Of a stretch of DNA of 64,000 bases, positions 1-54,100 are shown one piece after another. The position numbers were made by a program, and so were the translations under genes. This DNA comes from Octopus vulgaris (lineage: Eukaryota), in assembly GCA_951406725.2 (NCBI GenBank), contig OX597839.1, positions 31,248,001 to 31,312,000 on the forward strand, written 5' to 3'. Within the stretch, counting starts at the first letter, position 1. The number at the start of each line of letters is the position of its first letter. Under the pieces are notes generated by a model that saw only the letters and a program-made list of their open reading frames with translations, ran no database searches and was not told the origin of the DNA.

Positions 1-512
1 ACTGCTTTACCAAAACTGACCTGAGGCTAAACAACAACAAAAGCAACAGCCACCAAGACCTGTCCCCTGCTGGAAGGGAAACTTGCAGCCTTTGCTGTTT
101 ATAAAGACCCAGATTCAGCTGAGAGTGTTTGAGATTAATGAATACATGACAGTGAATAAATCCAGCTAAATCTAGATCTCTGTCCCTGGGGACACCACCC
201 CTCCCTTGCTACTGCCACCCCTCACCACCCTTCCATCACTACTTCCATTTCACTCCGAATGCTAAGTTATTATCGGTTTTTGCTGTAAAACAATCTCCAG
301 GTGTGCTGGTCAAGTTCAGCTGTGGACATCTGTGTCGTTAACGTATACCTGCACAGGTGGACTGTCTTCTTAGCTGGGTACTTTAGAATCATATCTGTTC
401 TGTCCACATACCTCTCTCCACAACTGTAATGTCAACATACTTCTGAACAGGTGTAATGCTAATGTACCACTATACTCTCAAACTGCTCTCTCTCTCTCTC
501 CCTCTCTGAATA

Positions 513-3029: not shown

Positions 3030-3290
3030 TGTGCCATCTCGACTCAAAACTCCCACCCTCTTCATCCAAAAGCTTTTGTGCTTCCACAAATAAGGAAGTC
3101 TTTCTACAATCATTGCTTTTTTTCTCCTCAAACTGCCAGACTTTGGAACTTTCTTTTATCTCATTGTTTTCCTTCTACCTATGACTTCAACCCTTTTGAG
3201 TCCAAAGCAAATTAATTCCTCTCACCTTAATTTCTCCTTCTTCATGGTTCCTCACGGTTCTTGCCTTGTTTTGGATGTTCAAAGAGAAAA
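3030..3290 (+). mobile_element. Non-LTR retrotransposon ORF2 C-terminal/3' end remnant
   Basis: Degenerate peptide FFSPQTARLWNFLLSHCFPSTYDFNPFESKAN resembles the FFPRTxxLWNxLP..FP..Y.L..FK tail of CR1/Jockey/I-group LINEs. Confidence 0.55.
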
Positions 3291-4265
3291 ACAAAAAAAC
3301 AGTTGATTGAATGTTGGAAAAGCTATTGTTGAAACCATTGGAGCAGCAGCTAGTGGGGTTTGAGGAGTATTTGGTTGCTATTTCTGACAGATGGTATTTA
3401 TCTCAGCCCAGTCCCACAGACATTACCTTGTCTCTCTCTTCACAAAAACAGTGATCCAGAAACCTGGAACCAATTTCAACCGAACGCCACAAGTTCTGAT
3501 ATAAAATTAAAAACAATACATTGGCTAAAAGCAGGACAAGATGGTCATGTTTAGATCATCTTTGTTAATTGGTTTGCTCAGTCATAGCTGGCCTACGGTT
3601 AAATAACAACAACAATGCAAGGCCTGTAACATGATCGAGATAATCGTTCCATCTTTTGACCAGTGAATCAACACATTTAACGATTTGGCTAAACCAGATT
3701 CTATCGTTCCATGAATATATTCCACCCATTCTTTCATTTGTTTGTTCTTTTATTCTTTCATTCCACCGATTTCTTGATCTGATGCGACCAAAAGTAAGAC
3801 AAGAGTTTTAAATTAATGTCTTGTTCTGACATTTGAGAAAAACAAAATCGTTCCCACCGACTCCAGCAGAGAATAAGGGTTTGGTTAGAGCCAGTAGGTC
3901 TGTTATGTTTTAGTGGCATAGTGACAGGAAGAAGGGGCAGCACCCATGACTAATTTCAGGGCCCCTGTGACTACTGGAAGGCTGGTGGACAGACAGACAG
4001 ACAAGCTTGCCATCAATCCATGATACTTACAATGGACTGACCCATGCTAAGGACACCAAGGAATCAAGTGACATCTGATGGTGTTAAAATGGGAAATGAA
4101 TTACATCCACTTCTCAATAACAGGAAGGGTCCTTCCTTTCAACAGGCTTCCTCACAGTTTTCTTTAATCAAATTTCATTGGCAAGACTTTGGTTGATCCT
4201 TGCCTGTTATAGTAGAAGAGTTTTGCTCTTACATATACATCTCCTTAATTATGGCTCTACTTATA

Positions 4266-5262: not shown

Positions 5263-5584
5263 ATACAGTTTGCTGTTCCATTAAGGTAAGATCAACAAAG
5301 GCAGTTCTCCATCCAGTGAGGGATAAATATCATTTATCATTTAATGTACACAGCATAAAGATGTGTTATAAAAACCAGCCTAGACACACATCTCCAAGCA
5401 AGAAACTGTTAGTAGTTCATATCTTCACACTGTGTACATTAAATGATATATATATATATGTATGTATGTATGTATAGAAGATGGTAGGGGTTCGCTCCCC
5501 TGCTTGCAATATATATCAGCTGCAGATTGCATCACTAACCAGCTGAAGGAGGCGTCCTCCTTGGGGTTAAAAAATGCTTGTTGA

Positions 5585-5621
<37 letters not shown>

Positions 5622-28671: not shown

Positions 28672-29561
28672 CATACATATATATTGGTCTGTATAGTCCC
28701 TCGTATATTCCTTTTTAGATGGTAATAGAATATCTTTCATTGATATGTCCATGTTCTCCATATATATATATATAAAATACATGTGTGTATGTATGTATAT
28801 ATATAATATTTTACACACACACAGATATACGGTATTGTAAAGGTAAGACATAAGGATAAAACTCTTCCACATGCATCCCGGAATTAAAAGAGAGAATGCT
28901 GCCATCATATGTGAAGAGATGTCTGGTGATAGTAAAAAGAAGGACAAAGAAATTCTTTTGTGTATCTCCACAAGGAAACAAAAATAAGTCAACCATGTCT
29001 ACTGACTTTCTGCCTCATTGAAGACATTGGTTGATCTTCCCAGGGGAAGAGGAGATCAGATCAGTTCAGTGCAGTGTTCAAAGGTGATGGTGGTGGCTCT
29101 CTGGAAAGACTTTTTCTTTCTCTTCTTAATTATTTATCTAGAGTCTCCAATCTTATTTATCTGTTTTATATTCCAACCAACTCTTTAAAAAAAAAATGAA
29201 AAAACATCACCCCACCAAAATCTCAACACTACATGATAATTCCAGATTAGGAAAAATAGGTAATGGGTGTCTATGCACATTTCAGGAGTTATTGCTCTCT
29301 CATCAGTGCCACATTCAATCCATCTACCATCACATTGCTTAAATACCCACTAAGTTTAGTGGTATAACACATTCCTGACAACTAGTAATTAATATTTACA
29401 TACTAATTCAAAATAATGTGAATAAATAAGCCTTATATTTGACAGATTAATCTGAATGCAAAATGGTTAAATTTGATTTATAAAATAGGATTTTAATGAG
29501 TGTTAAATTCATTATCTGCTTTAATGACCTGTAAACTCATTAAATTTCTTATTTTGTACAG

Positions 29562-30314
29562 GTTCGTTATAACAAGTTACTGTGTATAATCATCTTGAGT
29601 ATTTGGTCAATGAGTTTGATCCAGTTCTCATTGGTTCTCACAGCATCCAGCGCCCGTCACGACCAGTCAGGACTGGTATCCCAAGAACGTAAATCACGCT
29701 TGAAGAACTGTTGCCAAGCTGATGTCTATGGTATTATGATCTCGATATTCCTGCAAGATGGCCCATTTTTGGCGCTTCGATTGATGCTTATCTTCAAGTA
29801 CAAAGTGGACAGCTACACAAATATCTTCTTCACATCCAAAAACAGTCTTGTCATTATTCTCTTAATCTACAGACTCGTGGTTGTACAGATAGAGATGAGG
29901 AAATCAAATTCACCAAAGATATCTCTACCGATTCATGCCAACCGCAAGTACCAAACAGTCCGAGCCATTCATGAAACCGAAACGAACTTCCCGACTCAAA
30001 GGAACATGTTGCCGATGAACCAATCCCCCAGTAAACCCAACGGGGGTATAAGGGGCCGGGAATTCTACAGGACTCACCAGCTGAGCCAGCCTGCTCTGAA
30101 CTCGTCCAGTCACCAGTTGTTACCTGTCTACCAGCAACAACAACCATCGAGTCTACCTCATTTGTCCTCGAGGAAGGGTAAAGCACACATGAGTCACTCT
30201 AGTTTGCACTCGAGCCATTCTAACCAACATCTCACCCAAAAACCACTTTTCCCTCCAAATCAAAACAAAATGACTCGGTCCATGACCACAGACAGAATCA
30301 ATTCACCCGTCTGA
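29562..30314 (+). CDS. TMEM26: TMEM26-family protein, terminal coding exon (VRYNKLLCIIILSIWSMSLIQF...SIFLQDGPFLALRL...FFTSKNSLVIILLIYRL...RINSPV*)
   Basis: Acceptor ttttgtacag ends at 29561 and the exon is in frame with ORF 29595-30314. It carries the QDGPFLxxRL and FFxxKNxLV..LxxYRL TMEM26 motifs. The stop is TGA at 30312-30314. Confidence 0.93.
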   Translation, partial: VRYNKLLCIIILSIWSMSLIQFSLVLTASSARHDQSGLVSQERKSRLKNCCQADVYGIMISIFLQDGPFLALRLMLIFKYKVDSYTNIFFTSKNSLVIILLIYRLVVVQIEMRKSNSPKISLPIHANRKYQTVRAIHETETNFPTQRNMLPMNQSPSKPNGGIRGREFYRTHQLSQPALNSSSHQLLPVYQQQQPSSLPHLSSRKGKAHMSHSSLHSSHSNQHLTQKPLFPPNQNKMTRSMTTDRINSPV

Positions 30315-37174: not shown

Positions 37175-38077
37175 TAGGGTCTCCTAAAAGTGTCTATGGA
37201 CATTGAATGAAGATAAAGTCATTGTTTATTAAAATACTGTTGATTTCCACAATTTCATAGACTCTACAGGTATGATGAGAAACCCTTTAAATAAAGGTCT
37301 AGTGGTGTGACATCTGATGAGTGCAGAGGGTATTGTACTTGACCACTTTGTGAAATCTACCTGTTTGACAAAATCTCATCAAGGTAGGCCCTTATATCAC
37401 TGGGGTAGTATAGGGGTACCTCATCTTACTGGAAATAAAGCTCCACATCTTCAAAGCTCTGTTGAATGCTTGGCATCACAGATTGTCATGGCAAGTTCAA
37501 GGGAATGGAACCAGTGACAGAACTATCAAAAAGGAACGGTCCAATCGAGTCCTTTTCATGATAATCCACACCATTCTGTAATTCTTGGTAAATTAACTTG
37601 GTGTGACTCCCTAATAAACAGATTCTTCTTAGGTCCCCCATTGAGTGTCGTTCTGGGGGTTAATTGAGCCATTTCATTTAAATGTGCTTTCATCATTCTC
37701 AACATCTTGCCAAATATCACTCATAAAACTCTTTGGCCTGGATCATCTTCTTGAAGAGTTTCGATTATGACTTTTCCAATGATTGAACCTCAAAATGCAA
37801 TTGATGGATGTTTGTCTTTGAAATTCTTGTCTCATTTGCTGCATAGATTTTCTTCAACTTTGGCCAATCTGTTTCTGATACGTTTTCTTGTGGGGTTTGT
37901 TGAATCTGTTTGAAATTCCCTCCCAAATTCTCTTTCTACTTCAACTGCATTTTCAGATTTCTTTTGTTGAAAACTTAGTCTAGCTCCCTTAATTATTTGT
38001 TAGGGGTTCAATCTAAAAAGAAATGGGAAGGGTCAGTTGTTGAAGTGCATATAGACGTTTTGTGGGAGGATATCCTG
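37175..38077 (-). mobile_element. Decayed DD41D (rosa/VS-type) mariner-like transposon
   Basis: Manual minus-strand translation gives DESTFK.NGSINPQN, ITEWCGLS..IGPFLFD, and YFQ*DEVP...SSDVTPLD with exactly 41 residues between the last two D. The ends are degenerate inverted repeats (TAGGGTCTCCTAAAAGTGTCTAT / ATAGACGTTTTGTGGGAGGATATCCTG). It is absent from the ORF track because of stops. Confidence 0.75.
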
Positions 38078-38248
38078 TGAGCGTATTATATATATATATA
38101 TACATACATATATATATATATATACATACATATATATATATATATATACATACATACATATATATAGGAGTGACTGTGTTAAGTAGCTTGCTTACCAACT
38201 CCATATTTCCAGCTTCAGTCCCACTGCATGGCACTTAGAGCAATATAT

Positions 38249-38283
<35 letters not shown>

Positions 38284-39753
38284 TCATTAATTAAATATAT
38301 TCTGTTAGAATATTATATACTGAATTTATAATGAGTGCTCTTTGTATGAAATGTCAAAAATATTAATACTATAAAGTATTTAGACATTAATACGAGTGAT
38401 TATATATCTTGTATTTTGAAATGATAGCATTAAATTCAATATCAAACAAAATTTCTCATGAAGATATATTTGTCTAAAATAGTATTGTATTAAAAATATA
38501 TGTAAATATATGAAATGTGACAGTTTAAAAATTTGTTAATTAATGCATCTTACGATCGTTTCACGAAAGTATTGTCATTTTAATGGAATTCATTAATGAT
38601 ACACATTGATAGACTATACTTCCACTCGTCAGAGAAGATAAAGTTTTTATAATATATTGAATGTTGTTTTAAAATTAGGAAAATATATAAGAAAGTATTT
38701 TTGAAAAATAGATTAAAATTTACTGGTTTAGATTTATGAAGGTAGACTTTGCTAAGAAAATTTAAAGTTTGTGTATATACACACACACATATCCTCGGTA
38801 AATTCATCTCAGTAATCCCTAACAATTTTGTGTAAACAGTCCCTTATCCTGCATTCCATATTTGAGATGTACAAGGTTGATTTTGATAGTCAAAAGTATC
38901 AGTATTAAATTTTTATTTGTATAATTGGAAGATACCATTTTAAATTCTAATTTAAAAAATAAATTATTATTATTACAACTGTAAAGGTGTATTTATTGTA
39001 GGATAGATGTGTACAGGTTCAAATTCTAAGAAAACCAATTCATCAATTGTTTAACGTATAGTATATGTCGTGTAAATATCTCTATAATCAAAAATATTTT
39101 AATTACTTTGTCAATTTATTTATAATTATTTCCTTATTTTGATATCTCTAAATGGTAAATAATAGACGCTAATGTCAATCTTTGTTGCATCTTTTATAAT
39201 ATTTCAAAGTTTTAGAGAATTTGTGTCTACATGTTGACAAATTATTAAGTTCTTTTGACTAAACAGTAGAATATAGAGGGACTCCTTTGTACAGAGACGG
39301 CAACTATTAGACTTATGTGTGTAAGGTGTAGCAGAATCTGTTATTGACCAATCTAATCTACAGGTAACTTGATTTTGGTTCAATTTGTTTATACAGGTAG
39401 CTAACGAAGTAGTCTTACTAGTGATGTAAGGCTCAAAAGTAATGCAGGTGTGCTGGAAAGCTTTGCTTAAAATTAACAGAACTCCCTGTGTATACCATAT
39501 TACTTAAACTATATATATATGTATATATACATACATATATATATACACGTGTGTGTGTGTGTGTGTGTTCCAACTCCTGTTTGTCGACCAGCATTGGTGT
39601 GTTTGCATCCGCATAATGTAGTGGTTTGGAAAAAGAGACTGATGGAATAAAGAGCCAGGCTTTAAAAAGAAGTATAGGTGCCCCAGCATGGCCACAGTCT
39701 GATGACAGATAAAGATAAAATATATAACTTATCATGATTTCAAAAAGGGATTG

Positions 39754-40971
39754 AAACCCTCATGCTAAATACAAAGTTATACCTTACCACTAAGCCACCC
39801 AAGCAACTCTTATTTCTAGCCTAAAAATAAAAGTATTTAAACCTATTTTTTTGATGATTGGACACAATTATAGATTTAAGTATCACATCTGTGACAGCAA
39901 TTATTGGGGGGACCCGGTAGACTCGTGGGTAAAGGTGTGAGCAGTGCAAAGGGGGATGAAAGCAACCTTGTCCTGGGGGATCAAATCAGGGTGTAGGAGA
40001 GATTCTTTTATATTTTTTGTTTGTTTCAAGGATGCTAAAAAAAAAATATATATAGTTGCAGACAGAGATTGAAACCTCTATCTCTACACAGGATTAGTAA
40101 TTAAATTACCAACCCTTTTACCCACTAAGCCACCAGACCTCACCTTGTGAAACAGTGAAAAAATGAGATATTTAAATCTATTTTTATTAATGATTGGACA
40201 CAATTATAGATTTAAGTATCTCATTTTTGACAGCAATTATTGGGGGGACCCGGTAGACTCGTGGGTAAAGGTGTGAGCAGTGTGAAGGGGGATGTTAGCA
40301 ACCTTGTCCTGGGGGGATCAAATCAGGGTGTAGGAGAGATTCTTTTATATTTTTTTTAGCATCCTTGAAACCAAAAAAAAGAATAAAAGAATCTCTCCTA
40401 CACCCTGATTTGATCCCCCAGGACAAGGTTGCTAACATCCCCCTTCACACTGCTCACACCTTTACCCACGAGTCTACCGGGTCCCCCCAATAATTGCTGT
40501 CAAAGATGAGATACTTAAATCTATAATTGTATCCAATCATTGAAAAAATAGATTTAAATATCTCATTTTTTCACTGTTTCACAAGGTGAGGTTTGGTGAC
40601 TTAGTGGGTAAAAGGGTTGGTAATTTAATTACTAATCCTGTGTAGAGATAGGGTTTCAATCTCTGTCTGCAACTATATTTTATTTTTTTTTAGCATCCTT
40701 GAAACAAACAAAAAATATAAAAGAATCTCTCCACACCCTGATTTGATCCCCAGGACAAGGTTGCTGTCATCCCCTTTGCACTGCTCACACCTTTACCCAC
40801 GAGTCTACCGGGTCCCCCCAATAATTGCTGTCACAGATGAGATACTTAAATCTATAATTGTGTCCAATCATTAAAAAAATAGGTTTAAATACTTTTATTT
40901 TTAGGCTAGAAATAAGAGTTGCTTGGGTGGCTTAGTGGTAAGGTATAACTTAGTATTTAGCATGAGGGTTT
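39754..40971. repeat. ~1.2-kb palindrome of tandem ~336-bp modules containing tRNA-like Pol III cassettes
   Basis: The left arm 39754-~40357 is the reverse complement of the right arm ~40373-40971, with only scattered differences. Within each arm a conserved block recurs at a ~330-340-bp period (336 bp measured in the left arm). Confidence 0.95.
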
Positions 40972-42429
40972 AGCAGTGAGAATATGAGATATTTAAACCT
41001 ATTTTTATTATTGAGTTGATGCTGTGGGAAATTTAATTATCTTAATTTCTACAGAAATTAATGGGGGGAGAGTAGTGGTGCAGATAGATAAAGTATGATA
41101 AGACATCCTTTTTTTTTTTTTTTTTGTTTGATCAACAAGAGTTTAAAAAAAAAACAACCCCACCTTAACAGTAGCTCTAAGTAGAGTTTGAAACCTCAAT
41201 CATCATACAACCTTATTGATGTTAATTATCCACACAACTATGAGTGCAGCATCTGGAATCGCTTCAAAAGCAGGATATCTAAACCTATTTTCGTTCTTCA
41301 TCTTATTTTTGCCTTAACAGAGGACCCAGTAGGCCAATGGTTAAAGTTGTGCACGGACAAGGAACTGGAAGACATCCCGACAAACGTTCAAAACTGATTA
41401 AGATGAAAGTAAAACTTTTTGTCTTAATTTGTTTTTTCTGTCATCTTCTGAAAAAAAAAAAAAATTCTTTAGAAAGACCAAAGTCTTGTAAGTGGACTTT
41501 GGAGACCAAAACTGAAAGCAGCCCTTCATGTATATAGATATATATAATTATTTCTATCTATATATGAATAAACAGATCAACATACAGACGGATCGGTACA
41601 TAGGTTATAAGAACAGACAAGCACACACACACACACACTTTACCGCAAACAAGGACACATACAGAGACAAGGGTCCACGCGTATAGAGATGCACATCCAT
41701 ACAGATAAACATGGGACATAGTTGCAAAACACACACACAAGGAGACAGACGTGCATACATATACGAATACACAAACACATGAATACATACATACACACAT
41801 ACGTACATGCATAGGCACACACACACACACACTGACCCCCCACACGTGCACAAACAAACAAAACAAGGATCGCAGTGTAAATAAGGGACAGTCAAGAGTC
41901 AAGACTCTTGAAGAGGTTGCAAGATGCGACGAAAATTTTAGGAAAATGAAAATAAGAAATAAGTGGAAGTTTTACCGGTGAGTGTTTTAAATTATAAGGC
42001 ACAAAAAGAGAATGACTCTCCCCAGACACAACAGTATATATATATACACACATGTATATATACATAGACATATATATATACATATATGTATATATATACA
42101 TATATATATCTATGTATATATACATGTGTGTATATATACATAGACATATATATATATATACATATATGTATACATATATATATATATATATACACATACA
42201 TATATGTATATGTATGTATATATATAAATCAATAAATGGTGAGGTTGTGTTGATCGCACATGGAGAAATGATAGGCAAGGAGAAATTATGGATCTTTTTC
42301 TTTTGAACGGCAGTTTGTAAGATAATTTCTAGTTAACTAAAAGATCCAAAAAGGCAGAAAGCTAAATTGAAGGTAAATTTTAATGAAAATGGGTGAATGG
42401 AAAATTTAAAAAAATTATTTTTTTTTTAA

Positions 42430-42793
42430 GGCGCAGGAGTGGCTGTGTGGTAAGTAGTTTGTTTACCAACCACATGGTTCCGGGTTCAGTCCCACTGCGT
42501 GGCACCTTAGACAGGTGTCTTCTACTATAGCCTCGGGCCGACCAAAGCCTTGTGAGTGGATTTGGTAGACGGAAACTGAAAGAAGCCCATCGTATATATA
42601 TATATATATATGTGTGTGTCTGTGTTTGTCCCCCTAGCATTGCTTGACAACCGATGCTGGTGTGTTTATGTCCCCGATGGAATAAGTACTGGGCTTACAA
42701 AAGAATAAGTCCCGGGGTCGAGTTGCTCGACTAAAGGCGGTGCTCCAGCATGGCCGCAGTCAAATGACTGAAACAAGTAAAAGAGTAAAAGAG
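42430..42793 (+). mobile_element. Near full-length tRNA-derived SINE, family A (CORE-like body, internal (TA)n/(TG)n, GTAAAAGA tail)
   Basis: A box TGGCTGTGTGG, B box GGTTCAGTCCC, a CCTTRGRCARGTG core and a repeated AGTAAAAG tail. Many homologous copies occur in the window. Confidence 0.85.
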
Positions 42794-43084
42794 ATATCAA
42801 CTCCAACCGGTTTTCGTCGCAATGAGACTTTTCAAGAATTGCAAAGTGAAAAGAAAATTACATTGTTTTTTGCCAAAAGAATAATAAACATATACAAGAA
42901 TTCCAGAATATGTCCACCGATACATTGTAAAGTCTTTTGTGTGTCTGGAGTTCAAAGAAAGTTCTTTTTAAAAAGTTACCTTGGAGTGAGATTAGATCCA
43001 CGTGTTTAGTTTAGGACGTCAAAACAGGAAATGGGGCGGGAGTTATCCAGTTCCTGTAAGGGGAGACAACTCTGTGTGGATTTT

Positions 43085-50815: not shown

Positions 50816-51163
50816 AGTTTGTCAAAGAGCAGTTTGTCAAACAACAGCTTGTCAAGAGCAGTTTGTCAAACAACAGCTTGTCAAGAGCAGTTTGTCAAAC
50901 AACAGCTTGTCAAGAGCAGTTTGTCAAACAACAGCTTGTCAAGAGCAGTTTGTCAAACAACGGCTTGTCAAGAGCAGTTTGTCAAACAACGGCTTGTCAA
51001 GAGCAGTTTGTCAAACAACGGCTTGTCAAGAGCAGTTTGTCAAACAACGGCTTGTCAAGAGCAGTTTGTCAAATAAACGCCTTGTTAAACATCTGTTCAT
51101 CAAACAGTTTGTCAAACAACAGCTTGTCAAACATGAGTTTGCCAAATAACATTTTGTCAAACA
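50816..51163. repeat. 29-bp minisatellite (AGCAGTTTGTCAAACAACRGCTTGTCAAG)x8 decaying into ~15-bp repeats
   Basis: A directly visible tandem array. Confidence 0.95.
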
Positions 51164-54100
51164 TTGTAATTTTTGAGATGAGAACAACTATAATGAGTTT
51201 GTGGTAATTTTGTTTTTTAAAAAAAAAAAAAGAGCAAAAGACTTTCTAATTCTCTTTTCTGAAATTGCCGTGAAACCTCAGAGGTTTTTTGAAGAACTGA
51301 TAATCTAGCAGAGAGGAAGACAGAGGATCGAAAATATACAAACACACTCTCTCTCTCTTGCACACACACACACACACACACACATATGCACAGACACACA
51401 CACGTAATAAAAGTAAATGGCTCCATCCATTCTGATAATGAGTAAATCAAAGAGATTCTCCTTAACATAATCCTAGAGCACTTTCAATGGAACACACACA
51501 CACACATGTAAAGGCCACAAGAAATCACTCTAGTGATGGCAGCTGAAATTCCAGGCCCTTTGGAATTGTGTTGAGAGAATGTTAATAAAGGTTATGCACA
51601 GGGCCTCCCCAGTGCAGACCACCTCTACACTATATATATATATATATAAATAAATATATATAGATAGATATAGATACACACACACACACACACACATACA
51701 TGTATATATTCACAATAGTATTGTTCTAATTCTTCCAACTCAATGGATAATAGTCGAAGGGGTTACATATCCTTCATAGATTTAATCACTGGGCTTCCAT
51801 TCATTCTCCATCTAACCTCAACACTTGGATTTGAATAAGGAGGCTACAATACAAGACACCTACCCAAGGTACTGTGCCATGGTATTGAACCTGGGGATTC
51901 ATGACTGCAATGAAAACATAACTCTACACCCACCCCTTTGTCCCTGCACACATGGCAATGCATCCACACCACTACACCCAAGAATGGCAAATAAAGAGAT
52001 ATCAATGGATTAACAAAGACTAAAATATTTGTTCCTAAACCCTGTCCACAACAATAGGTAGAAACGTAAGGTATTTGGGGTGGGGGGGCATAGGGAATGG
52101 GTTGTATGGGGGGAGAGCACAAGATCAGACTGATGTTTCTCCCTTAATGAGTGAAAAGGTCAACAGCAACTGGGTCCCTAGAAGGGTCTCTCTACTACTC
52201 TATGACTACCATCTAAACCTGATCATAAAATGTAGTACTAATTACCCTTTAAATTATAAGCACAAAGCCTGAAGTTTTGGGGGCTGGGAGGTCGATTACA
52301 TCGACCCCCAGTGCTCAACTGGTATTTATTTCATCGACCCCAAAAGGATGAAAGACAAAGCTGACCTCAGTGGAACTTGAACTTAGAACATAGAAAAGGG
52401 TGATATGCTGCAAAGCATTTTGTCTAGTGTGCTAGTGATTCTGTCAGCTCACCTTAATCATAACAACAACAACAACAATCTAGTAAAATGCTCTTTTGCC
52501 ACCAAAAATATATCAACAAAAACCATTCCACCCCATAAAAAAAACACAAATGTACAAGTGTTCCCTGCTATTTTATTTCTTATTTCGATGTGAGTTTTGA
52601 GATTTGTGAGACAAGGGTTAAATAGGAGGATGAAAGGTTCAACATTTCATTTCTATAGAAACATCGCAAAAGCAGCTCTGGTTAAGAACTGAAACTGGAC
52701 AGAAAGATTTAGAGACTTTAATGTTGCTATGGCACTGGCTGCCCATCAATACCATTTTGATGGGGTTCAATGGTGAAGGGTGTTAAGATATTGGGGTGTT
52801 GTGGGACTGAGCAGATTACTTCTTATATACACAATGGTCAAATAAAAAAGAAGAAAAACTAATCCTACGAAGTAAAAAAAAAAAACAGCAATCATTACCT
52901 CAGCATATCCTCACTATCAGACTGTCAAACACACGCACGATATGTTCTGATGACCTCATTAGAAACCAACACAACCAGCTATTTGATGACAGAGTATATG
53001 GTACAGTCTCAGATGGGACTGAAGCATGGCATGTCCAAGCTGCAGGAGTTGTGCTTTGTTGTGCCACAGTTTGCACAAACAGTTAAGAGATAAGAAGGTA
53101 ACCTGACTCAAGTACTTGCCATATAAGAGTATGCAAAGTAGTGTCAGATGAGACAGAATGCATAGGTTTCCTCAAAAGTGTTTGTTAAGCTACCTTTATC
53201 TTCCAGAATGGATGGAACAAAGCCGGCCACTTTCACACAACAACAATAATAATATTGATGAATTATTTTGCTGTCCATATCAATTAATTCTTTTCATTGA
53301 AATTAAATGCTGCATTGAGAATTTGGTTAAGACATTTAACCAAAATTTCTGACTTGTATTAAATCAAAATCTTTTTAAAAGCTCAAAACTAAAAATAAAA
53401 ATACAAAAGCAAATAAGAAAATTTTGTAAAAGAAGTGAAAAAGAAAAACAACATTTAAAGAATTTGATTTCTCTCGATCTGAAGGAGTTGTATTTTAAAA
53501 GAGAGATGAGATGATGGAGAGAAGGTTTAGGAAGGGATAGCAGCCGTATGTTTCTCTAGAATAGTAGCAGCATAAATGAAATGAAGTGGCTTCATTTGGA
53601 AACGGAAGCCTCGATAAGAACTAGGTCCACTACCAGACTAATTGTTGCTCTCTACAAGATGCTAGCCACAACACCTACAGAAAATCTTCAAGGATAGAAA
53701 TATTGCGAATTGATATAAAAAAAAAAAAACATGAGGCTGGCAATAACAAGAGATTTATAAGGGTTTTTTTGAATTTTCACATGTGTTTCCTTTTAAGTTC
53801 TAAATCTAAGATATCATTGATGGTAATAAATGCATCAATTCTTAATTTGGTTGAAGGAGAGAGAAAAAAACAAACAAAAAACAAGCAAGGTTTCTTGTAA
53901 AAAAAAGGGTTTTTGTTTAACTTTACTTTTTTTTTGGTTTTTGTTTTTCAAAGTATCTTCTTTTCCTTCTATTTTCCAAAAGTTCTTTCTTAAAATGAAA
54001 TATGGTAAATAGAAACAGTGCAAGATCAAAGACAGGAAAATAATGGTAAAGATATGAGTGAAATGGCAGAGGAACGGAAAAAATAATAATAAAAAAAAAA

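Follow-up and report, generated by a model that had tools for sequence, protein, structure and literature searches.

Head-to-head arrays of candidate RNA polymerase III cassettes dispersed in the Octopus vulgaris genome

Within a 64,000-nucleotide stretch of Octopus vulgaris DNA (hereafter the window) lies a palindrome built of short tRNA-like units, each preceded by a TATA-like motif. This arrangement raises the question of whether such units form a small-RNA expression system, an array of binding sites for transcription factors or a repeat that is carried along by other elements. We consider it probable that they belong to dispersed arrays of head-to-head cassettes, of which some types were transcribed by RNA polymerase III (Pol III) in the germ line, and which have spread as passengers and are mostly decaying.

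Layout of the array in the window

The palindrome occupies positions 39754-40971, with 95.9% identity over 1224 nt and a centre near 40362, and the motif, A-box, T-arm and T-run coordinates given in the initial annotation were likewise found again. The sequence TTTAAATA occurs at 40553 and 40884, and in both cases an A-like box is located 44 nt on, at 40597 and 40928, as had been claimed. The first of these cassettes, V1, also carries in its right-arm copy a T-arm-like hairpin and a T run at 40678-40691. The B box of the second cassette, V2, was correctly described as complete in one arm only, since GGTTTCAATCC is intact solely in the left-arm copy (39758, minus strand).

A conserved block of about 200 bp had been read as a constant promoter that precedes variable cargo. 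The sequence is present. However, about 135 of its about 200 bases are a further cassette, K, located on the opposite strand, where TTTAAGTA is followed 43 nt on by TAGACTCGTGG, then by GGATCAAATC and a T run. Because K lies inside the supposed promoter block, each arm carries cassettes on both strands. The model of a constant promoter with exchangeable cargo is therefore not supported, as the supposedly constant part is a cassette too and no cassette lacks a promoter motif of its own.

Two related cassettes placed head to head make up the repeat unit, which measures about 335 bp. Each cassette includes an upstream TTTAA motif, an A box at +43/44, a B-like box and a T run. The two motifs of a pair stand head to head across a spacer of 19-33 nt, and T/A runs are located back to back between pairs. 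In the window, the array comprises 12 cassettes or remnants whose orientation alternates strictly, and T runs are found in every complete cassette (Table 1).

Table 1. Features of the array, in window coordinates; a dot marks a feature assigned to neither strand.
Feature	Position	Strand	Elements
Repeat of presumed SINE type, 3' part, very abundant	39560..39725	+	One end of ~2-kb unit
Cassette V2/G, left arm	39742..39846	-	TTTAA 39841; predicted start 39811; A-like box 39797; variant B box 39758; T5 at 39746-39742
Cassette K1	39870..40009	+	TTTAA 39875; A-like box 39918; B box GGATCAAATC 39978; T run 40006
Cassette V1, left arm	40037..40181	-	TTTAA 40176; predicted start 40146; A box 40132; variant B box 40076; T10 from 40046
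Cassette K2	40206..40357	+	TTTAA 40211; A-like box 40254; B box 40315; T runs 40343/40350
Cassette K3	40373..40524	-	TTTAA 40519; A-like box 40476; B box 40416; T runs from 40388
Spacer, 23 nt, between two head-to-head promoter motifs	40525..40547	.	CCAATCA at 40533
Cassette V1, right arm (cassette 1 of the initial annotation)	40548..40691	+	TTTAA 40553; predicted start 40583; A box 40597; variant B box 40652; T runs 40678-40691
Cassette K4	40710..40855	-	TTTAA 40850; A-like box 40807; B box 40749; T runs from 40722
Cassette V2/G, right arm (cassette 2 of the initial annotation)	40879..40971	+	Junction 40971/40972 interrupts B box
V1/E promoter stub, motif only	40972..41002	-	
Decayed type D cassette	41027..41127	+	B box gone
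Deletion hybrid (third cassette of the initial annotation)	41145..41288	-	TTTAGATA 41283; A-like box 41240; B-like box 41195
Type Z cassette, degenerate motif	41287..41420	+	A-like box 41330; B-like box 41385; T5 at 41416
Same presumed SINE-type repeat, middle piece	41476..41546	+	Other end of the array

The spacer listed in Table 1 is also present at 39847-39869, 40182-40205 and 40856-40878. The third cassette, on the minus strand, has its elements where they had been reported, but it is not an independent unit: its promoter and A box come from type A (79-85%), and its 3' half comes from type C (82-93%). A contig of run X2 joins 40134 to 40972, and thereby places the promoter of the stub at 40972..41002 on an intact V1 body. 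The ~2-kb unit that ends in the repeat at 39560..39725 is common to the loci on C3, C17, C21 and C26. Depth over this repeat, which like the piece at 41476..41546 we take to be a SINE, exceeds 40,000 in three large runs.

The palindrome itself is a local fold-back of the array. The fold-back is shared by the window and its paralog L074, whose arms extend about 1.9 kb, and among the 21 loci read at 10 kb these two are the only ones with a whole-array palindrome. The idea that the palindrome is part of a design is not supported. Smaller local inversions were observed at L073, L066, L078 and L079.

A dispersed family of cassette types

The genome (2.8 Gb, 227 contigs) was searched with single-sequence queries representing the block, a 22-mer motif and the second unit type. 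There are about 56 array loci, counted by hand as distinct places and to be taken as a lower bound, and they are found on about 20 contigs with roughly one to five units each. Exact matches to the 22-mer motif number 40 genome-wide, compared with none for its reversed control. The 127 cassettes anchored on the motif, which come from 21 loci, represent at least 10 types with identities of about 80% within types and 48-65% between them in gapped alignments. In the alignment, the conserved motif and the A box flank a variable stretch of constant length. The group to which the window belongs is a ~2-kb unit of 75-85% identity found on C3, C6, C9, C14, C17, C21, C24 and C26.

The cargos of V1 and V2 had been called unrelated. 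Judged by the motifs that they share, V1 and V2 are instead two types of one family. This kinship rests on the motifs, because the identity of about 60% between the two would by itself be weak when unrelated types score 48-65%.

The TATA-assisted type-2 Pol III geometry that had been proposed is kept across diverged copies. A type 2-hybrid gene would have its TATA-like upstream element about 30 nt ahead of the start and its A box at about +12 to +14. The A box lies 42-45 nt from TTTAA in 87 of the 99 cassettes with an A-box call (127 anchored), a count that is partly circular because the search profile contained the A box. The B-like box was absent from that profile, and it is present in 96 of the 127 cassettes compared with a shuffle mean of 6.2 and a maximum of 13, although the copies are related and hence not independent. 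In nine of 10 types, most copies carry it. The classical B box has the consensus GWTCRANNC, and this form is found in only 30 of the 127 cassettes, K among them. The V types carry a conserved variant, GGTTTCAAT, that deviates from the consensus at the position equivalent to C56 of tRNA, and the figure of 96 counts classical and variant forms together. In two large groups, each pair combines a GG(T/A)TCAA cassette with a GGTTTCA(A/G)-variant cassette.

In the dispersed arrays, the spacing from TTTAA to the A box is thus 42-45 nt in most cassettes with an A-box call. The CCAATCA sequence is not constant: it was not found in the spacers of the older copies on C6, C9, C17 and C21, and in a second group, named after types t10 and t13, CCAAT lies on the side of the cassette without solo copies (see below). 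The role assigned to CCAAT is therefore not borne out.

One possibility is that the arrays bind TFIIIC or TFIIIB and act at the DNA level, as a boundary, through open chromatin or by helping their carrier, with the RNAs as by-products. The survival of promoter elements and spacing in at least 10 types that elsewhere approach random similarity would be expected in this case, as would the strict alternation of orientation and the fact that K has a classical B box yet neither solo copies nor a fold. However, deletions are frequent in dispersed copies and the window's array is located about 9 kb from the nearest likely exon, and we consider such a role improbable.

With a matrix of the upstream motif built from 35 cassettes, all eight 7SL genes examined reach 10.1-12.9 bits, each time at exactly -36; as paralogs, these genes amount to about one independent observation. 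The same matrix remains below 5 bits in each of 30 tRNA loci, five arrayed U6 genes and two vault genes, and 5 of 2710 background windows reach 10.1 bits. The 7SL TGGC box is about 42 nt from TTTAA.

Several known classes were considered and rejected. ARAGORN identifies no tRNA genes in the window, there is no tRNA match in Rfam at E<=1 and no acceptor stem appears in the folds, so that by these features the cassettes are not tRNA genes, which would show a cloverleaf with acceptor stem and anticodon arm. Rfam scans of positions 38000-43000 and of eight loci yielded only hairpin-driven microRNA matches below gathering scores. Vault RNA lacks support since there is no match to RF00006, and the true vault-family matches are located elsewhere and are unrelated. 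A retrozyme or hammerhead satellite is disfavoured because no ribozyme family is matched at E<=1 (38000-43000) or at E<=0.5 (the eight loci), thresholds at which minimal hammerheads may escape. Finally, the units are not ordinary SINEs, as the initial annotation had argued: arrays were amplified with their upstream flank, copies in arrays retain the motif and spacer, and the solo copies have mixed tails and mixed source subtypes.

Solo copies, RNA folds and selection

Some family members are found outside arrays as solo copies. The V1 body has 20 matches, of which six lie outside arrays and represent five loci, one being locally duplicated. The t10 query has 41 matches, with 12 solos among the 30 loci read; the motif-less locus L253 was set aside because it is an array member broken by an insertion. 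These numbers are lower bounds obtained with single-sequence queries for V1, t10, K, V2, t13, F and old E, leaving out C, A, D, B, Z, t4 and t19. Solos of their own were not found for K (15 matches), V2 (9) or F (8), nor for t13 among 40 matches judged by position alone, and the 24 matches of old E include no new solos. Thus, only one cassette per pair shows a sign of having been RNA.

The upstream motif is kept in none of the 17 solos. Their outermost 5' boundary falls at TTTAA+26..32 in 14 of the 17, and by eye most begin with a purine at +30 while three are shortened at the 5' end. The outermost start of the V1 solos is TTTAA+27/28, and the solos point to a start at about 40583. Starts near 40590 and 40921 had been predicted, and these lie about 7 nt too far downstream. 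A T run is located at or adjoining the 3' end of 14 of the 17 solos (by eye); three t10 solos end earlier. About half of the solos are fused to a 3' tail that is also found behind retroposed copies of vault RNA, U6 and tRNA, and the others have different tails or no tail. Junctions differ between solos, and differing junctions and tails are expected of separate events. A convincing target-site duplication is present at about one of 10 solos. Because both ends occur at these points, read-through transcripts or DNA fragments would not fit, and the solos have the appearance of processed copies that derive from discrete Pol III RNAs. Judging from these boundaries, V1 and t10 were likely made into RNAs of about 95 nt by Pol III. 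The five processed V1 loci support the earlier prediction that cassette 1 produces a discrete small RNA.

The V1 solos are closest to the C26 subfamily, which includes the window. Solos record past rather than present transcription, and the source locus cannot be named from them. In five runs taken as RNA, low-depth contig pieces cover spacers as well as cassettes, and are neutral on expression.

These boundaries bear directly on a simpler explanation, wherein the family is inert and consists of a tRNA-derived satellite or a repeat of the MITE kind. The 'TATA' motif would then represent a terminal inverted repeat, and the solos would be fragments that arose by chance. The motif does make inverted repeats of 18-22 nt, single inward-facing pairs exist at L064, L069 and L078, and decay appears neutral. 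However, the agreement of solo boundaries with the predicted start and terminator largely refutes this explanation, and the motif is situated at the same distance from 7SL starts. Furthermore, the spacer measures 19-33 nt, the ends are variable and visual inspection of the single pairs at L064 and L069 revealed no target-site duplication. An inert repeat is thus highly improbable, and we return to the preferred reading of transcribed passengers.

The predicted V1 RNA of about 100 nt would form three hairpins, with fold z-scores of -3.9 (left arm) and -2.5 (right arm) and a mean of -2.65 over 16 copies. Scores for V2 (-0.1) and K2 (+0.2) are near zero, and V2, K and the hybrid fold no better than shuffles. 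The mean for t10, the type with the most solos, is -0.3, and no fold common to types was found when types were compared. Promoter architecture rather than RNA fold has been kept over the long term, which points to selection on transcription or factor binding.

In 13 orthologous t10/t13 units, the boxes have 25 substitutions in 1008 positions compared with 111 in 3441 for the flanking LINE/SINE DNA (p=0.25; three of 16 loci were dropped as non-orthologous, and p=0.93 for all 16). Moreover, 23% of A-box positions are deleted in t10/t13 units. Purifying selection on the boxes after dispersal was therefore not detected in these units. Relative to the remaining sites of the arrays, the boxes are better preserved (p=4e-5), a comparison that is confounded by monomer mixing and homopolymers. 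Most dispersed copies look like neutral, decaying passengers, and the deep conservation between types suggests constraint in a few source lineages.

Perhaps the family instead provides regulatory small RNAs selected by the host, like primate snaR or rodent BC1, such that the V1 and t10 RNAs are functional in the cell. V1 folds do beat their shuffles, four C26 loci have intact V1 cassettes that were duplicated recently, RNA levels were high enough for 17 solos to arise, and pieces of the family are found in runs labelled as three organisms. The lack of a fold common to types, the value for t10 and the substitution and deletion counts given above stand against this view. We consider it distinctly unlikely, and a host-selected expression system gained no support from the single selection test.

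Spread of the arrays and comparison with known systems

Arrays of the t10/t13 group continue into a SINE head and a LINE fragment, the frame of which presumably resembles the end of an RTE-clade element. Seven of the 16 loci run into the (ATG)n or (TA)n tail of this fragment with unrelated DNA beyond, and nine break off earlier. The 5' ends of the units are staggered. No convincing target-site duplication was found at the seven full-length units, of which several ends lie in microsatellites. As judged from these ends, the units most likely spread by LINE-driven retrotransposition of a composite read-through transcript.

For the window's group, no LINE tail was found at a common end. Microsatellites, SINE pieces and a Penelope-like piece delimit its units. 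The piece beside the group-1 arrays resembles a Penelope repeat that includes a hammerhead core, and one frame adjoining it had no match in a Pfam scan. The loci L073 and L075 on C26 share several kilobases of flank, which indicates that segmental duplication contributes.

In the A-box region, the D arm of this genome's tRNA-Arg is matched at 15 of 17 positions by t13, at 13 by old E, at 10-11 by V1 of the window and at 10-12 by the window's types. This resemblance makes a tRNA-Arg-like origin of the cassettes likely. According to the reading that we favour, an ancestral tRNA-Arg-like cassette would have been duplicated in inverted orientation, and the pair would then have been duplicated in tandem. 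On one side, a cassette would have a promoter spacer in common with its neighbour, and on the opposite side the T/A runs of two adjoining cassettes would lie back to back. TFIIIC bound to the A and B boxes would place TFIIIB on the TTTAA motif, and Pol III would start at a purine near TTTAA+30 and stop at the T run. A LINE reverse transcriptase could then switch template onto the oligo-U-ended RNAs, as it does with U6, and give rise to promoterless solos. Whole arrays would have moved within mobile or duplicated units that contain their DNA. Selection would most likely have acted on the transcription of a few source copies or on the binding of factors to them.

A more ambitious interpretation is that the arrays represent a new kind of element, selfish or domesticated, with a conserved payload that consists of multiple Pol III promoter pairs facing outward. 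The geometry would have been selected through more than 10 turnovers of sequence because bidirectional Pol III transcription, or loading of TFIIIB and TFIIIC, lets the unit spread or work. Such an element would keep yielding germ-line small RNAs, for example the structured V1 RNA, some of which might have been recruited by octopuses. We regard this as unlikely, and continue with arrays that spread as transcribed, decaying passengers.

These cassettes are a candidate Pol III small-RNA family of an octopus that is apparently undescribed and has precise predicted ends. They suggest that promoter-bearing Pol III cassettes can multiply and diversify as cargo of mobile units, which would provide a route to noncoding RNA genes like snaR and BC1. 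The analysis also yields a 7SL-type upstream motif for cephalopods, and its candidate Pol III promoters, compact and two-way, could be used in cephalopod genetics to express guide or hairpin RNAs. Should the family no longer be expressed, the arrays would be a well-resolved fossil repeat family.

Among known promoters, the closest parallel is provided by type 2-hybrid genes, for which 7SL is the model in the available text of PMC10498592. These genes (7SL, vault RNA, BC200 and nc886) have A and B boxes, an upstream element and an oligo-T run. The cassettes have an A box, a B-like box that takes the classical form in 30 of 127, an upstream motif and a T run, and both the upstream motif and its register in the cassettes match those of the 7SL genes of this genome. 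The cassettes likely work like such a family, as far as promoter sequence indicates. In contrast to 7SL and vault RNA they have no Rfam match, and the genome has its own separate 7SL and vault genes. They also differ from type 2-hybrid genes in forming alternating head-to-head arrays of at least 10 diverged types with no common fold.

Mobile elements with comparable cargo are the TRIMp3 elements Helenus, Ajax and Cassandra (PMC10886601) and the SVA-like retroposons SVA and SINEU (PMC4494074), which carry Pol III promoters derived from small-RNA genes according to the accessible portions of these papers. The t10/t13 unit resembles composite retroposons in ending in a LINE tail, but its cassettes face both ways. 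Helenus and Ajax, as far as PMC10886601 describes them in its available text, have two direct LTRs and a target-site duplication of 4-5 bp. A TRIMp3 element was rejected because the octopus arrays have alternating orientation, a variable number of units and no direct LTR pair, and no target-site duplication was found.

The solos find a model in U6/LINE chimeric retrocopies, wherein a promoterless, full-length small RNA is joined to a LINE-type 3' tail. The available part of PMC4476161 attributes template switching onto U6 to LINEs of the L1, L2 and RTE clades. These chimeras account for solos and not for arrays, and target-site duplications were mostly not found here.

No published description of the family was found in a search that covered subscription literature thinly, and the family may sit unnamed in Repbase, in Dfam or among the 1102 'unknown' families of the library for which PMC13282606 is the partly available source. 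Within the available texts on other systems, the arrays most resemble primate snaR, Xenopus OAX/satellite I and newt PolIII/TAN. The latter two have a tRNA-like sequence within a tandem unit of several hundred bases (~360 nt for PolIII/TAN), and PolIII/TAN is transcribed in vitro according to the accessible text of PMC10702118. The octopus units differ in that they consist of two opposed cassettes, number about one to five per locus and are dispersed over about 20 contigs. The snaR genes, as presented in the accessible sections of PMC3045588, are also SINE-like Pol III genes that form arrays, have spread mostly with their flanks and have retroposed relatives. However, they are derived from Alu and are demonstrably expressed, whereas expression of the octopus family is inferred from solos, and the head-to-head pairing of the octopus arrays is not described for snaR in those sections. 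Alternating head-to-head arrays of candidate Pol III mini-genes are a real, apparently undescribed variant among such systems.

Palindromic and single-type arrays

The near-perfect t19 palindromes lie between tandemly repeated short units, whose only elements are a B-like box plus a T run. Read-through transcription of the single-type array of K-like cassettes would be expected to yield RNA with long hairpins, and such RNA is a possible siRNA or editing substrate.

Features of loci read from genome G000 (L-numbers; C-numbers are contigs) and of the window
Feature	Location	Strand	Description
t19 palindrome, 280 bp, near-perfect	L078:7069-7349; L079:1631-1910; L136:6202-6481		pair of identical t19 cassettes in tail-to-tail orientation
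K-like array	L066:4420-5330 (C21:22.48 Mb)		six cassettes, single type, alternating orientation
256-codon frame	window 29544-30311	+	~9 kb before array
29-bp tandem repeat	window 50819-51164		young; 8.8 copies, 99% match
Vault RNA tandem pairs (2)	C8:17845131-17845639 (L135); C8:17900033-17900539 (L085)		Rfam match, upstream TATA boxes, T runs
U6-like genes, arrayed (5)	L134 (C1:139423726-139428422)		octamer, spacer, TATA
7SL tandem cluster	C5:143.07-143.12 Mb (L088-L095, L137)		~13 genes, 3-8-kb spacing

Inverted copies and features of the window

In locus L297, two inverted copies of a ~70-nt sequence (3290-3350 and 5510-5590) lie on either side of a t10/t13 unit, as if this unit were enclosed in a small inverted-repeat element. 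Another locus, L139 (C9:86.29 Mb), lies 24 kb from the C9 array unit and is a truncated inverted duplicate, 97% identical, of the beginning of that unit.

Within the window, the 256-codon frame has a presumed resemblance to the final exon of a TMEM26-like gene. The 29-bp tandem repeat is followed by a 30-bp variant.

Vault RNA, U6-like and 7SL genes

There are sixteen matches to the Rfam Vault RNA model above the gathering score in G000 (including L080-L087 and L135). Besides the two tandem pairs, these matches include retroposed copies that carry a LINE-type tail. The pairs are likely to be true genes. Mollusc vault RNAs may themselves be under-reported.

The five arrayed U6-like genes may be variant U6 genes, because their 5' sequence is unlike that of the widely retroposed U6 copies. 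The upstream motif of the array cassettes is present in every 7SL gene examined from the C5 cluster.
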